This document shows positions 25,655 through 39,909 of a stretch of DNA of 64,000 bases, one piece after another. Every line of letters starts with the position of its first letter. The first letter of the stretch is position 1. Position numbers and translations under genes: made by a program. The notes beneath the pieces were generated by a model, which did no database searches, was not told the origin of the DNA, and saw nothing but the letters and a program-made list of their open reading frames with translations. Origin of the DNA: a virus; the IMG/VR virus record IMGVR_UViG_3300040856_003015, positions 10,893-74,892 of that record; one strand, given 5' to 3'.

Positions 25655-26305
25655 TTACAACGAATTCAAAAATTCGTTAAATAAGTTTAATTTATGTTCT
25701 TCTAAAACTCTTTGATCTACTAATGTATTAATTCTTCTTTTAGTTTGCTCAGCAATCTTTTCTCTCAAAATACCACCATCCCATACCCACTCCTTTCCTT
25801 CCATAATTCCAGATACAAACGCATCAGGTGCAGAAGGATCTGCTACAATATCAGCAGCAGTTGCTAGCATGAAATCTTCGCCAACTTCCTTATAACCTTT
25901 TTGGTTTTCTCTAAGTGAACCAATACCCCTAGAAGACACTCCAAGAGTTACTCCATCTTTGAGTAAAGATTCTGCAATCTTACCCATAGGAGTAGATAAA
26001 ATTTGTGCTTTACCTACAAAGTTATTACCTACTTGATTTAACTCAGTAATTTTATGTGAAACACGATCAAGATTTACAGTTGGTCCATCTGGATGACCAA
26101 GTTCTCCAAGAGCACGACCTTTTTGAACATATTGCTCATTATAACGCTTTACTTCCTTTTCCATGATTGAAAGAGGATACATTCTTCCATTTCTATTAAC
26201 ACATTCTGCTTGTAGAAATGGTCCTTTAATGTAAAGTTTTTGGTCTTTTCCAGTTCCTTCTTTAAGAACTTCTACCTTTTCGATTTCTTCTCTGATTAGT
26301 TTCAT
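25655..26305 (-). CDS. gp21: Prohead protease
   Basis: NRNGRMYP, GELGHP, VSH, GVSSRG, DIVADPSAPDA. Confidence 0.97.
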   Translation of the reverse strand: MKLIREEIEKVEVLKEGTGKDQKLYIKGPFLQAECVNRNGRMYPLSIMEKEVKRYNEQYVQKGRALGELGHPDGPTVNLDRVSHKITELNQVGNNFVGKAQILSTPMGKIAESLLKDGVTLGVSSRGIGSLRENQKGYKEVGEDFMLATAADIVADPSAPDAFVSGIMEGKEWVWDGGILREKIAEQTKRRINTLVDQRVLEEHKLNLFNEFLNSL

Positions 26306-28079: not shown

Positions 28080-28409
28080 TTAAATCCATTCTAGTTTTGA
28101 AGGATGATATCTTTTAATATCTTTTATATTTACTTGATTGTTTTTTTCTTGAATTGGGTATATATTGTGAACTATGGAACCTGGATAATCACTTTGAAGC
28201 ATTTCTCCCAATTCTCTACGAGACGGTAGTGTATAACTGTCCAATTGAAGTTCAATTCGATAAATCTGCCCTTCCCAAAGAAAGTCCGCAAAAAAACTTT
28301 TAGTTTCTTTTACATCTTCTGGGAAATCGCTTTTTACAATAATTGTCCCAACTGACGCATTGCCAGAAATATTTACAGATTCTGATAAAAAGTTTTTAAA
28401 AGTTTTCAT
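28080..28409 (-). CDS. Probable internal head protein with a capsid-targeting sequence
   Basis: N-terminus MKTFKNFLSE resembles the T4 CTS MKTYQEFIAE. Confidence 0.65.
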   Translation of the reverse strand: MKTFKNFLSESVNISGNASVGTIIVKSDFPEDVKETKSFFADFLWEGQIYRIELQLDSYTLPSRRELGEMLQSDYPGSIVHNIYPIQEKNNQVNIKDIKRYHPSKLEWI

Positions 28410-35096: not shown

Positions 35097-35558
35097 TTAC
35101 CATTTTACTTTATTTGCCCAATAAGCTGCAGACATTTTTCCTTTTTTGATATTTTTTGCGTGTCTTGACTTAAATTTTTCACGTCTCTTGGCATATTCTT
35201 TTGACTCACCTTCTTTTTTAGGAGAACCTTTTACTCCAAGTTGACCAAACCTTATAATTTTTTCTTTACCACCCTCACATGCTTTTACTATGTGGGATTT
35301 TCCAGATTCTCCAGACCCATGTGCTTGTACTTTAGGTTGATTACATTTCATCTTATTTTTATCAACAGATTCATTTTTTACTCTTAAATCTGTATATAAT
35401 TTTCCTTTACCATCAACTGATGGTATGAATGCACCATATGGTCCAGATTTTTTGTCTTTATCGTCAATAAATCCATCAATATTCGAATCACTGCGTTTAA
35501 TAGATTTTTTTATTTTATTGAGAAGTTCCTTCTTAGATCTAGGAGGAACTTCTATTTC
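35097..35558 (-). CDS. -1 frame extension of the upstream gene: EF-hand-like loop plus DUF5754-like basic domain (includes the track ORF 35097-35351)
   Basis: Frame open from the slippery site to 35097; DSNIDGFIDDKD; IRFGQ...KRREKFKSRH...SAAYWANKVKW; no SD before ATG 35351. Confidence 0.7.
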   Translation of the reverse strand, partial: EIEVPPRSKKELLNKIKKSIKRSDSNIDGFIDDKDKKSGPYGAFIPSVDGKGKLYTDLRVKNESVDKNKMKCNQPKVQAHGSGESGKSHIVKACEGGKEKIIRFGQLGVKGSPKKEGESKEYAKRREKFKSRHAKNIKKGKMSAAYWANKVKW

Positions 35559-35564
35559 TTTTTT
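35521..35564 (-). promoter_or_regulatory. Programmed -1 ribosomal frameshift signal
   Basis: A_AAA_AAG at 35564-35558, 4-nt spacer, perfect stem AGAAGTTCCT/AGGAACTTCT. Confidence 0.78.
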
Positions 35565-36877
35565 TCTTCCTTTATTTCAACCCCCTCACCAATTGTATTA
35601 TTATTCATGAGATAATTTTTAGATTTTGAGTTTTGAACCTGTACGAGAGGTTGATTAGGATCAAGATCTGCAGTATTATATGTAACTACTCTTGATCCAG
35701 GATAAACTTTTTGGACTTCGGCAGTAACTTCTTTTCTATTTGGCATTCTAACTTGTGGGAAGAATAATCTCATAGAGTAATATTTTCCCCTCCAAGATAT
35801 CACTACTGATATTATATTTCCATTTTGAGCTTGGAGGCGAACTGATTCACTGACATTTTTTTTCTTATACCCCTTTGCCTTTTTCACTCCCTTTTTAACT
35901 GGTACGCAATTTGGAACTTCTTTCCCATTCTTCATTTTCATACCAACTTGAGTATATCCTTTCCAACAAGGATTTTCTTCTTCAATAGAACCTGGCTTTA
36001 TCAGATCTATAAACTCTGCATAAACATTTCCATCACAATCTCTTACAATATTACTTTCATTTTTAGACTCAACTTTTTTTAATTTGCTATAATAATTTGG
36101 AACTTCATCTAAATGTTGTAGGGCAGTTATTCTTGCATCTTTTCTATTTGATGTATGCTCTAATTCAACTTTAATGCCCATTTCCAATTGATTTTTTATA
36201 ATATCTAAAGAAACTCCATGTTTTTGTGCTATTTCTTTAGGTGATTTATATGGTTGAACTGGACCTTTTGGGTCTTTTTCTTCACCCATTGGGCAGGACT
36301 CTTTATTATGCACTGGACAATATTTACCTTTTTTGGTATGATTACAAGATGATTCCTCCATCATCTTCTTAGATAAAGGTTTGCATACTTTATCTGTCTT
36401 GCACCAGTACATTCCCTTTCCACACTTTTCTTCACCAAGAATTTTTTCAACTAAAGAAACCTCCTCTTTATTAAATTTTGGGGGAAGACTAACCTTGGAC
36501 ACTTCTCTTTGCCTAAGTTTTTCTGCTTTGGGACCAAGAGCTTTTGCAGCTTCTGGTCCTAGTGCCTTTGCCCCAGTTCTTGGAGCAATTTGACTCCCTG
36601 TACTTGTTAAAATTTTAGTTCTAGGTATGCGATTACTTTTAGTATTTTCATCGATACTTTCATCGCTCTGAAGATATTCTGAAGCGGTATCAATGTAATC
36701 CGCAGCTTTAGTTATTTTAGATTGAACCCATGCTGGGAGTTGTTGATTTCCGGATTTAATTTGTTTCCTGAGATTTTTAATTGATCTCTCTATTGAATCT
36801 AATTCATTTCTAGCCATATATCCTTCATCATCTTTCTTTTTTCCTGAAGAAATTTCTTTATGATCTTCCCTAATCAT
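35552..36877 (-). CDS. Modular head-associated protein (putative internal polyprotein) with a DUF5661-like module
   Basis: Short modules separated by Glu-rich junctions; GIKVELEH...HLDEVPNYYSKL; CWKGY...PNCVP. Confidence 0.75.
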   Translation of the reverse strand: MIREDHKEISSGKKKDDEGYMARNELDSIERSIKNLRKQIKSGNQQLPAWVQSKITKAADYIDTASEYLQSDESIDENTKSNRIPRTKILTSTGSQIAPRTGAKALGPEAAKALGPKAEKLRQREVSKVSLPPKFNKEEVSLVEKILGEEKCGKGMYWCKTDKVCKPLSKKMMEESSCNHTKKGKYCPVHNKESCPMGEEKDPKGPVQPYKSPKEIAQKHGVSLDIIKNQLEMGIKVELEHTSNRKDARITALQHLDEVPNYYSKLKKVESKNESNIVRDCDGNVYAEFIDLIKPGSIEEENPCWKGYTQVGMKMKNGKEVPNCVPVKKGVKKAKGYKKKNVSESVRLQAQNGNIISVVISWRGKYYSMRLFFPQVRMPNRKEVTAEVQKVYPGSRVVTYNTADLDPNQPLVQVQNSKSKNYLMNNNTIGEGVEIKEEKKK

Positions 36878-36906
36878 GGTTATAATACTAGTCTTTATTT
36901 TATTTA

Positions 36907-37686
36907 TTAAAAACCAAGATTTTTAGATCGAACATAATCTAAATCATATGAAGTATATGTTATTGGAATATCTTCTTTTCCATATGGATTTTTTGTTGGA
37001 CTACAATATCTCCACTCATCACCCCATTTTTCATACATATATGAAAAATTTTCTTGATTAATTTGATCTAGTCTTTCTTTTAGTAATGGATCAGTTTTTG
37101 TTGTCTGACTTCCATGCTCATAATATTGATCTTTATTACCTAGTCCGTGGTAATAGTTACTTTCCAAAGACAAAATTTTCTTTATTGGTCTATGTATGAA
37201 TCTCATAATATAATCTGCATCTTCACAATATGCTGGATATAAATTTTCATCAAAAAGACCAAATTTTGATATAACCCAGTCTTTAATCAAAAAAAGATCC
37301 CAACTGCCAACTCCAAAATCTCCAGGATTGCCATGAATTAACCCAATTTCATTATCTTGAGCATAATCATACATTTCTTTTAAAAGTCCTATCCCAAAAG
37401 AAACGTCATCATTTACTATAATCCAATAAGGACAGTTCATATAACATTTTATAATTAAATTCCATGCACCAGAAACACCTATATTTCTAGGCAGATTACA
37501 AACGGTAATTTTTTTTATAAATTTATGATTAATTTTCTTTATTTTTTCTAGGTCATCATCTAATTCACCTTTTCCATTATTATTAATAATCACAAATTCA
37601 TCTACTGGATAATCAACACTCATAATTAATCTCATTACCCAGAATGAACTATTAACAACTGCTGTTCCAATAACAGGTATACTCAT
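36907..37686 (-). CDS. GT-A (family 2-like) glycosyltransferase
   Basis: VIINN, NIGVSGAWN, IVNDD, GLFDENLYPAYCEDADY. Confidence 0.85.
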   Translation of the reverse strand: MSIPVIGTAVVNSSFWVMRLIMSVDYPVDEFVIINNNGKGELDDDLEKIKKINHKFIKKITVCNLPRNIGVSGAWNLIIKCYMNCPYWIIVNDDVSFGIGLLKEMYDYAQDNEIGLIHGNPGDFGVGSWDLFLIKDWVISKFGLFDENLYPAYCEDADYIMRFIHRPIKKILSLESNYYHGLGNKDQYYEHGSQTTKTDPLLKERLDQINQENFSYMYEKWGDEWRYCSPTKNPYGKEDIPITYTSYDLDYVRSKNLGF

Positions 37687-38930
37687 AGTAATCCCAACAT
37701 ATAGTGCTCAGATTTTTTAACTTTATCACTAATACATGTCATCTTGTTTAAAATTTCTTTATCCACCAAATCTGGGTGAACCCACCAATCTTCGTAAGAT
37801 CTCCATTCATCTGGAGATATATTATTAACAACTCTCACGTACCCGTATGATTCTAAGTATTTTTTAGATTTTTCCTGGAATTGTTTTGTTTGATCACAAT
37901 AATAATCATGTTCATAAGTAATTACAGCAAATTTAAATTGTTCAAATGGGATACTAAGAAGTATTTTATAAGTTACATCTGGAGGATCACAATCTAATTG
38001 TAGATAGTCTATTTCATTATAAAAACCAAATCCTTGCAAAAAGTTTTCATAATTTATTCTAGTAGCATCTTTTAATAAACAAAGGTTTTTTCTTTCTTTT
38101 GAAAATATTTCTACAAATTTTTCATCAATATCTAAAGAAACTCCATCCCATCCAAATTCAGTCTCTAGAAGTGCAGTGTTATTTCCATAAAATGGATTTG
38201 CTGATCCAATTTCTAGATATTTTCCTCTTTTTTTGCCATTCAACATAGAGAGGACGAACATATCCTGATAAGATTCAGAATAATTTCTTTCAATTGACTC
38301 TAAACCTGGGAATTTGAACTTATAAGAATCATACTTAGATTTATTATAATTTGTTAATTCTCTAGAGGTAGATGTAATCTTACAAAGATTTTCTATAGAT
38401 TTCGATCTATATTCTTCATTAATATCTTTACTTTGTACTAACTCTATAAAAGTTTTTCTAGAATCGTCACATAGTCCACACCACCAACCAGATACTGCAC
38501 GCATGAATTTTAGACTAAAAAATCCGGGATAATCTAATTTTGTCCTCAGATTTTCGGAATTTGGGTCTGATACATCTAATCCTATGCTTGATATAAGATA
38601 ACACTCATGCCAATCAGATGTAAATTCGTAGAATCTACTCATATAAAAATATGCTTCAGGCCTTTTAGGGCATGTCGCTATAGCATGTTGTATTAATCCT
38701 TTTACAGTGAAGTTTCTAGATCCTTGTTTACTAAAGCATGTTGATGCACGCAGAAGACCCTCATATTTTAACAAATCATTATCTGTTCTTTCAGCAGACC
38801 TTAAATAATATGAAACTGCAGACGCTAACTGTCCAATATTATCATAATATAAGGCAAGGTCAAAATTTACTTCAGCATTATTTGGGTCAAAAACATATTT
38901 TTTTATTAATTCATTTATTTCAGTTTGCAT
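37683..38930 (-). CDS. TPR-repeat protein with a C-terminal FkbM-like SAM methyltransferase domain
   Basis: N-terminal TPR helices (PKRPEAYF); SESYQDMFV, YLEIGS, IDYLQLDCD, ITYEH. Confidence 0.75.
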   Translation of the reverse strand: MQTEINELIKKYVFDPNNAEVNFDLALYYDNIGQLASAVSYYLRSAERTDNDLLKYEGLLRASTCFSKQGSRNFTVKGLIQHAIATCPKRPEAYFYMSRFYEFTSDWHECYLISSIGLDVSDPNSENLRTKLDYPGFFSLKFMRAVSGWWCGLCDDSRKTFIELVQSKDINEEYRSKSIENLCKITSTSRELTNYNKSKYDSYKFKFPGLESIERNYSESYQDMFVLSMLNGKKRGKYLEIGSANPFYGNNTALLETEFGWDGVSLDIDEKFVEIFSKERKNLCLLKDATRINYENFLQGFGFYNEIDYLQLDCDPPDVTYKILLSIPFEQFKFAVITYEHDYYCDQTKQFQEKSKKYLESYGYVRVVNNISPDEWRSYEDWWVHPDLVDKEILNKMTCISDKVKKSEHYMLGLL

Positions 38931-39909
38931 AAAGAAATTCCTCTATTACTTTTTCTGGGGTTTTTAATAAGTATGCACAATTGTCTTGGAAACCAAAAGT
39001 TATTAAGAAATCGTTATTGTATTTTGCCATACCTATGCAAAATTCTACATGACCAGACATTATTGAAAAATCATTGGAATATTTTACCATATTCCAATTT
39101 TTATCCCATAAAATTAATCTATGTCTATAAATTGCATCTTTTCTACCCACTTCGCTATTAAATAAATCAACTTCATGAGTTATTGCGAGATAGTGATCAT
39201 TCCAAGAAACTACCTGAGATCCTCCTCTAAGGTCTCTAGGGAGACTTATATGGTCTGTTAAAACCTCTGTAGTACATATATTAGTTATTGGATCTACTTT
39301 TACCAACTCAGTAGGATTAGACCACTTAATGTAATGATATGGAATATCTAAAACAGGCATCCAATTTTTTTCACAATATGAATCTGGATATTTTGGTGGG
39401 GGAATTCTTAATCTAGAAACTTCTTCTACTGAATTATCTGTAACAATTATTTCAGAAAGTTCCATTCTTCCCTGACCATTTGTTGTAGTATCCCTCCTTA
39501 CACCAGATATATACAACTTTTCATCCCATTTAAAAATTCTAGCATCTTCTAGACCCACAAAATCCCACATAGGTTCGTATGTGTCAAATTTAGAAGTGTC
39601 TATCTTATTATATCTTACAACATTAAAATTGTTATCTAGTTCACAATAATAATTATCTGTCCTTAAGTACATATCATGCTCTGGATGAACATATGTCAGA
39701 GGACCATATTGATGCTGATATAATTTTTGTTCTGAATGATAAAATGTATAATTTACATGCCTAATATTTACTAAAATTTTTCCACCATCTATAAAAATAG
39801 ATGGATTCATTATACCAGTACCTGATGTTATATTACCAGGAATTATTAGTGGATGTATGTCTCCACCACATTCTAAAGATCTTCTAGAAAGAGAATATAA
39901 AAATTCCAT
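38920..39909 (-). CDS. Beta-propeller glycoside hydrolase/phosphorylase-like protein (GH130/DUF377-like)
   Basis: NPSI, GLEDARIF, EKNWMP, RGGS, EFCIGM. Confidence 0.7.
   Translation of the reverse strand: MEFLYSLSRRSLECGGDIHPLIIPGNITSGTGIMNPSIFIDGGKILVNIRHVNYTFYHSEQKLYQHQYGPLTYVHPEHDMYLRTDNYYCELDNNFNVVRYNKIDTSKFDTYEPMWDFVGLEDARIFKWDEKLYISGVRRDTTTNGQGRMELSEIIVTDNSVEEVSRLRIPPPKYPDSYCEKNWMPVLDIPYHYIKWSNPTELVKVDPITNICTTEVLTDHISLPRDLRGGSQVVSWNDHYLAITHEVDLFNSEVGRKDAIYRHRLILWDKNWNMVKYSNDFSIMSGHVEFCIGMAKYNNDFLITFGFQDNCAYLLKTPEKVIEEFLYAN

Follow-up and report, generated by a model that had tools for sequence, protein, structure and literature searches.

The gene at positions 35097–36877, on the minus strand of a 64,000-nucleotide (nt) window of the IMG/VR virus record IMGVR_UViG_3300040856_003015 (the whole stretch of DNA analysed here), encodes a chain of small modules and belongs to the cyanophage family T4-GC119. 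We lean, with little more than even confidence, towards the view that it is a late gene for a virion polyprotein, which is made in two forms by a -1 frameshift, taken up into the prohead and cut by the gp21 protease at the linkers between its modules. The parts of this view differ in strength. The frameshift is real and, as judged from its conservation, almost certainly programmed, and many small proteins are probably brought into the virus head by way of this gene. What the evidence below leads us to infer is the cleavage itself, the location inside the head, what the basic C-terminal module does, and a role of the pieces as injected effectors.

Module junctions

An earlier note on this DNA had described modules bounded by hydrophobic-x-Glu (φ-x-E) junctions. 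All eight junctions that it listed (IRE, IDE, LGEE, MMEE, MGEE, IEEE, VSE, and IKEE) could be found in open reading frame 1 (ORF1), the 0-frame part of the gene. Eleven of the 12 φ-x-E tripeptides in ORF1 lie inside linkers of the AlphaFold model with a predicted local distance difference test (pLDDT) score <50, and these linkers span 45% of the residues. Counted over the whole sequence the tripeptide is enriched compared to shuffled sequences (z = 6.8), but the reversed E-x-φ is equally enriched (z = 8.2). The global enrichment is thus real but non-discriminating, and position-specific tests were therefore used instead.

These tests gave a much sharper picture. A φ-x-E tripeptide was found ≤16 amino acids (aa) upstream of the module anchors in 89.5% of 484 distinct internal contexts, as opposed to 25.5% of random 16-mers, and at a fixed offset ahead of the modules H1, C1, D5661, W, and D6321 in 98–100% of distinct contexts (background 2.1% per position); the contexts are related by descent, so these percentages do not represent independent trials. 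Across the 263 distinct contexts of six fixed junctions, Glu occupies P1 in 246 cases and Asp in 2, P3 is M, I, L, V, or F in 246/263, and P2 is variable. The corresponding φ-x-D is not enriched upstream of modules (10.7% vs 13.2%). The motif precedes unrelated folds and persists whichever module stands upstream.

The gp21 protease of T4 is reported to recognize L/I-x-E and to cut after the Glu, and the capsid-targeting sequence is reportedly no longer processed when P1 is Asp (PMC9026906). The junction motif fits gp21 specificity in its choice of Glu over Asp at P1, and the window encodes a gp21 homolog, which we propose as the processing enzyme (Table 1). The window gp23 (LLTE/T) aligns with the T4 cleavage site (FLTE65/A66), so that L-T-E is kept; the mature chain of T4 gp23 in the PDB has 456 aa, i.e., 521 - 65. 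Taken together, the sequence data support a position-specific and Glu-specific motif of the gp21 type at the junctions.

The -1 frameshift

The earlier note had also placed a frameshift ahead of the last modules, and here the evidence turned out to be strong. The frame changes at GAA GAA AAA AAG AAA TAG. Overlapping with the end of ORF1, an open -1 frame runs from 35576 to 35097. Its homology to in-frame relatives begins right at the slippery heptamer (EIEVPP vs EVELPP). The same ..E.KK end site is seen in 75 of the 242 relatives, and the 441-aa protein is found in identical form on 20 contigs, which are possibly not independent. Hairpins were found in most relatives, but not in all.

An IMG/VR scan of the linkers, in which the heptamer was left unconstrained, found 44 family loci (one further row of the 44 is a second upstream site in L097). 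The C-terminal module stands in the -1 frame at 13 loci, and all 13 have NNA AAA AAG followed by a stop codon. The K module is in frame at 10 loci, all of which keep NNA AAA AAG TCY GAR. For the nine with TCT, a -1 slip stops two codons on (GTC TGA), a dnaX-like inverse layout that would likewise yield a long and a short product. The D6321 module is in frame at 21 loci with a direct join, I-x-E/DWQ. In another branch (L009:4221-4290 and L032:2341-2410) the frame changes at the lambda G/GT heptamer G_GGA_AAG, and a GC-rich hairpin of 11 bp lies 5 nt downstream of it. Since no ATG, GTG, or TTG precedes the conserved module in the EF-type and D6321-type extensions, these cannot be separate genes. 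As a conserved -1 signal must give two products, the "frameshift-tuned dosage" suggested previously is reasonable. A literature search on programmed frameshifting in cyanophages returned no prior description. The in-frame K loci that keep the heptamer are L113, L119, L120, L129, L130, L143, L159, L163, and L168 (also L004, L006, L034, L035, and L062).

It is very improbable that there is no programmed frameshift, and that the break instead reflects a homopolymer error, a pseudogene, or a separate gene re-initiated at the ATG at 35351. The shift does fall within a run of seven A residues, the ATG opens an 84-aa ORF equal to the K module, and the K module occurs as a free protein in other phages. 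In K-only relatives an ATG lies 5 codons past the slip site, and re-initiation at an internal ATG is possible for those relatives. For the window it is ruled out by the conserved module that lies upstream of the ATG without a start codon: the 69 codons from the slip site to the ATG are open, lack a start codon, and are homologous to in-frame modules elsewhere. Sequencing error and pseudogene formation are likewise ruled out by conservation, as divergent relatives share the stop position (75/242) and the 13 loci share the canonical heptamer and stop. The 20 contigs with the identical protein, the canonical spacing of the hairpin within 4–9 nt of the heptamer and the second, independent slippery motif G_GGA_AAG also speak for a programmed event. 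Transcriptional slippage is unlikely, since most relatives have just six A residues.

The extension encodes an acidic loop module and the basic K module (Table 1), previously described as EF-hand-like and DUF5754-like. Conservation of the loop DSNIDGFIDDKD follows the pattern D-x-[DN]-[VI]-[DS]-G-x-[VI]-D, but the EF-hand assignment found no profile match (Pfam, E ≤ 1). The PROSITE EF-hand pattern presumably excludes I or V at loop position 4, and this loop carries such a residue. Nor did DUF5754 give a Pfam match at E ≤ 1 anywhere in the extension, where the module corresponds instead to phrog_7595. AlphaFold modeling of the extension was of low confidence and uninformative. The last ≈90 nt of the K module (35097–35190, minus strand) show 75–77% nucleotide identity to unrelated marine phages, including Roseobacter phage CRP-1 and cyanosiphovirus KBS-S-2A. 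This identity suggests that the K mini-gene was recently exchanged among phage groups.

Modules, family, and detection in virions

The AlphaFold2 model (100-sequence alignment) has a predicted template modeling score of only 0.23, with confident islands for DUF5661 (pLDDT ≈88), W (≈80), and H (≈65) that are parted by the low-scoring linkers. The protein is therefore not one folding unit; a single fold, which the earlier note had regarded as incompatible with its proposal, gave way to beads on a string. The PHROGs database has a separate family for nearly every segment of the polyprotein, and the same modules are reordered in homologs, which together with the AlphaFold islands agrees with the discrete modules described before. 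Within Module H, which is preceded by I-R-E and followed by I-D-E, the model has helices at residues 17–41 and 49–70. The three Cys mini-domains of the earlier description were recognized by conserved residues, of which C152 and C159 (C1) and C178, C187, H190, and C195 (C2) are invariant. The DUF5661-like module was confirmed by Pfam (E = 3.7e-13, 50 bits against a cutoff of 27) at residues 213–272 (nt 36062–36241). This was the sole Pfam match in the protein, and no effector, enzymatic, or MuF-type domain was found by Pfam. Searching the AlphaFold model against the PDB with Foldseek gave no match at E ≤ 0.001. In relatives, Pfam identified the domains DUF6321, DUF192, and DUF5872. A tandem duplication (AKALGPEA/AKALGPKA, residues 103–118, nt 36524–36571, minus strand) is present in the linker past Module H.

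Membership in T4-GC119 was assigned by a tblastn match to SSM2_109 of phage S-SM2, annotated as "T4-LIKE GC: 119", with which the polyprotein has the modules H, C1, C2, C3, and W in common. The family gave >4391 matches. Shuffling of modules among homologs, proposed earlier as a check, was pronounced, with 78 architectures among the 242 stored relatives. The positional orthologs in DSL-LC02, B23, S-SM2, P-TIM68, and S-SCSM1 have the same modules in other orders and combinations, and so do metagenomic relatives.

T4-GC119 is listed as "Structural protein" by Sullivan et al. (2010; Table S8, PMC3037559), where it was detected by mass spectrometry in S-SM1 virions with 13 counts, and 15 of the 16 genomes have it, in genes 276–2985 nt long (PMC3037559). 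ORF29 of S-SCSM1, a clear member of the family, is annotated as "virion protein" in a study that reports 45 virion proteins, identified in CsCl-purified particles by mass spectrometry (PMC9602691). Published mass spectrometry on these two relatives, S-SM1 and S-SCSM1, thus supports that the family is virion-associated.

A stand-alone W-module protein with a targeting leader

The window also encodes a stand-alone paralog of Module W (Table 1). This 109-aa protein begins MKTFKNFLSE/SV, and the T4 internal proteins IPII and IPIII (NC_000866) begin MKTYQEFIAE. Because its N-terminal so closely resembles the IPII/IPIII capsid-targeting sequence, it is likely to be an internal head protein of this phage, as far as can be told from the sequence. 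In the polyprotein, NVSE/SV leads into the W module. Similar free genes (MKSYKQFISE/SV...) were found directly downstream of family genes at five IMG/VR loci. T4 gp67 and gp68 were considered as homologs of the 109-aa protein and rejected, as no similarity could be seen by eye in the translated sequences.

Proposed mechanism and alternatives

In the mechanism that we propose, most ribosomes would stop at the TAG at 35552–35554 and make the 441-aa form. Some would slip -1 on A_AAA_AAG, aided by the hairpin, and add 153 aa (the acidic loop and the basic C-terminal module) to give a 593-aa form. The polyprotein would be taken into the prohead, where a gp21-type protease would cut behind the Glu of the φ-x-E linker that precedes almost every module. 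About eight peptides or mini-proteins of roughly 25–100 aa would be released, and some, at least, might remain in the head with the DNA, as the T4 internal proteins do. Bounded by a common cut site, modules could be swapped, lost, or added freely, which would explain the many architectures.

Several observations weigh against this mechanism. The virion mass spectrometry of relatives is silent on whether the protein is in the head or the tail and whether it is cut or intact. In a second proteome, T4-GC119 was annotated yet undetected (PMC3037559). The polyprotein starts MIRE/DHKE and has no IP-type capsid-targeting sequence of 10 residues at its N-terminus. Met or Val often stands at P3, as frequently as the Leu and Ile of the T4 motif; the shared descent of the junction contexts also tempers the percentages above. 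The junction ahead of the K module in the window is K-N-E and not φ-x-E, and a scan of the -1 extension for φ-x-E found none. Several modules are modeled at low confidence and could be simply disordered. Finally, many marine podoviruses and siphoviruses, which are not T4-like, carry the K module as a free protein of ≈88 aa, with some copies outside head gene clusters.

The same chain could be read as a virion protein that stays uncut, like beads on a string (for example a decoration or neck protein, or one associated with fibres), with its acidic linkers as flexible spacers. The φ-x-E tripeptide would then be a shared element of caps or linkers, and an optional C-terminal domain would be appended by frameshifting, as happens in some capsid and tail proteins. 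A modular protein with low-confidence linkers and no N-terminal capsid-targeting sequence fits this well, as do the global enrichment of the reversed E-x-φ and the fibre-like proteins among the hypervariable-region neighbors in relatives, and detection in virions carries no information on processing. We nevertheless find it unlikely. A generic acidic spacer would not yield such a choice of Glu over Asp at a fixed position, with a hydrophobic residue at P3, before unrelated folds; φ-x-D is not enriched; and the stand-alone W paralog bears a cleavable targeting leader of the T4 type. A rather unlikely possibility, in which gp21 does cut the protein, is that it serves in assembly only, as an accessory of the prohead core or scaffold or as a source of DNA-condensing basic peptides, like gp22, gp67, and gp68. 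Most fragments would then be lost from the head and play no part in the host cell infected next. The T4 core proteins are reported to be broken down into several fragments at L/I-x-E and mostly expelled (PMC9026906), many of the fragments predicted here are very small (≈25 aa), the C-terminal modules are strongly basic, and no module matches a known effector or enzyme. Set against this, core assembly proteins do not typically form a highly variable and shuffled family in a hypervariable region, mature virions still contain peptides, and the same modules are found as free small proteins in unrelated marine phages.

Processing by gp21 in the prohead thus stays the reading that we prefer. It may be extended, tentatively and with considerable doubt, to an evolvable loading cassette, in which any mini-protein placed between φ-x-E linkers would be packaged, set free by the protease, and handed over in finished form to the Prochlorococcus or Synechococcus cell infected next. 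Either the frameshift or, in relatives, its dnaX-like inverse would set the share that carries the basic C-terminal module as an anchor or DNA-binding element.

Comparison with known systems

Processing by gp21, packaged internal proteins, dnaX-type frameshifts, and polyvalent proteins are all known elements. Not described in the searchable papers is their combination as a chain of shuffled mini-modules with a protease-type site before each and a conserved frameshift before the terminal modules. Literature searches on DUF5661/DUF6321 and on the cyanophage capsid-targeting sequence gave no prior description.

The closest parallels are found in T4 itself. IPI, IPII, IPIII, and Alt are also small accessory proteins of a T4-type head with a hydrophobic-x-Glu motif and an encoded gp21, and the leader of the window's W paralog is close to that of IPII and IPIII. 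T4 has one internal protein per gene, whereas many unrelated mini-modules stand here in one frame, each behind its own site, in a polyprotein without an N-terminal targeting sequence and with a frameshift that governs the C-terminal modules; cleavage and injection are putative here. Like gp22, gp67, and gp68, which give small fragments during head maturation, the polyprotein has several sites of the L/I-x-E kind. No sequence similarity to these conserved core genes was seen, and the family is hypervariable and modular.

In giant phages such as phiKZ, 201phi2-1, and SPN3US, a gp21-related protease also trims many head-internal proteins after Glu, and some of these proteins are ejected into the host. 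Those are, however, large individual proteins that have propeptides and the motif S/A-x-E, with neither a chain of mini-domains nor a frameshift. The polyvalent proteins (Iyer et al., 2017; PMC5512222) are similar in concept, with several modules per packaged protein, delivery with the DNA, and domain shuffling. They differ in being very large and in having MuF-type head anchors and recognizable domains of enzymatic or anti-restriction function, whereas no such anchor or domain was found in the polyprotein; cyanophages and frameshifting are unmentioned in that study. The dnaX and lambda G/GT frameshifts are also of the -1 type, with the same heptamers (A_AAA_AAG in the polyprotein gene, G_GGA_AAG in relatives), a hairpin downstream, and two products with a common N-terminal part. 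As in dnaX, the in-frame K relatives keep the heptamer and a -1 stop two codons on (9/10 loci). The difference is the class of gene: clamp loader or tail chaperone there and, as predicted from sequence, virion polyprotein here.

T4-like cyanophages are among the most abundant viruses of the ocean. The family occurs in nearly all of them and in thousands of metagenomic proteins, with "structural protein" as its sole annotation so far. If our reading is true, tailed phages gain a way to package a variable assortment of small proteins as a polyprotein, the extreme variation in gene length is explained, and a conserved -1 frameshift is added to a class of genes without a known one. The question of what marine phages deliver into cells besides DNA thereby becomes testable.

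Genomic setting

The window comes from a 74.9-kb contig of a T4-like myovirus with a GC content of ≈30%. The nearest isolates are the Prochlorococcus phages P-TIM68, P-SSM2, and P-SSM5 (≈70% nucleotide identity in the large terminase), and the host is probably Prochlorococcus. All genes are on the minus strand, in the order gp13-gp14-gp15-gp16, three glycosyltransferase-like genes, the polyprotein gene, gp17-gp18-gp19-gp20 ... gp21, gp22, and gp23. The polyprotein gene thus sits in the hypervariable region between gp16 and gp17 and adjoins the large terminase (gp17). The family gene has the same placement in DSL-LC02, B23, S-SM2, and P-TIM68. The coordinates of the features are collected in Table 1.

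Table 1. Positions in the window of the polyprotein gene, its modules and frameshift signals, and related genes.
Feature	Position	Strand	Description
gp21 prohead protease homolog	25655..26305	-	Proposed processing enzyme; Peptidase_S77, 5.7e-38
Stand-alone W-module protein	28080..28409	-	109 aa; phrog_1742; between gp20 and gp21; BLASTP 4e-6 to Module W
-1 frame extension	35100..35558	-	153 aa; stop 35097-35099; predicted trans-frame product 593 aa
Basic C-terminal K module	35100-35369	-	phrog_7595, 1.8e-27
Acidic D-x-N-x-D-G loop module	35367-35558 (loop 35454-35489)	-	In the -1 extension
Candidate stimulatory hairpin	35521..35553	-	10-bp stem AGAAGUUCCU/AGGAACUUCU, 4 nt past the heptamer; folding energy (dG) -13.8 kcal/mol, z -6.4
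ORF1 (0 frame)	35552..36877	-	441 aa; order H, linker, C1, C2, DUF5661+F, C3, W, slip-site linker; ends at TAG 35552-35554
Slippery heptamer A_AAA_AAG (GA-A AAA AAG)	35558..35564	-	One codon ahead of the 0-frame stop 35552-35554
Module W, residues 345-431	35585..35845	-	SVRLQAQNG...WRGKYY...YPGS; pLDDT 75-84
Module C3, residues 301-344	35846..35977	-	CWKGY...NC beta hairpin and basic tail; ends V-S-E; phrog_9737
DUF5661 module and small beta element YAEFIDLI	35978..36280	-	Terminates in I-E-E; pLDDT about 88
Cys/His module C2, residues 176-199	36281..36352	-	C-x8-C-P-x-H-x4-C; between M-M-E and M-G-E
Cys module C1, residues 150-175	36353..36430	-	CGKGMYWCKTDKVC; between L-G-E and M-M-E
Low-complexity linker, residues 78-149	36431..36646	-	Includes conserved helix EEVSLVEKILGE
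Module H, residues 5-77	36647..36865	-	Helical hairpin DHKEISSGKK...LPAWVQSKITKAADYIDTA; phrog_32745
T4 late-promoter-like motif AATAAATA	36901..36908	-	7/8 match to TATAAATA; 24 nt 5' of the ORF1 ATG; function putative

The sequence TATAAATA is the T4 late promoter consensus. The late-promoter-like AATAAATA overlaps the stop codon of the gene upstream of ORF1. The three genes between gp16 and the polyprotein gene (36907–39909, minus strand) encode proteins of 259, 415, and 329 aa that look like glycosyltransferases or methyltransferases.

Further modules occur in relatives. A zinc-ribbon-like module (YCPKC...C-AYG) that is absent from the window is present in S-SCSM1 ORF29 (L102:2418-3971) and in S-B43 (L103:3012-4295), and some metagenomic relatives have a hydrophobic, transmembrane-like module (MAPxxAALGR).

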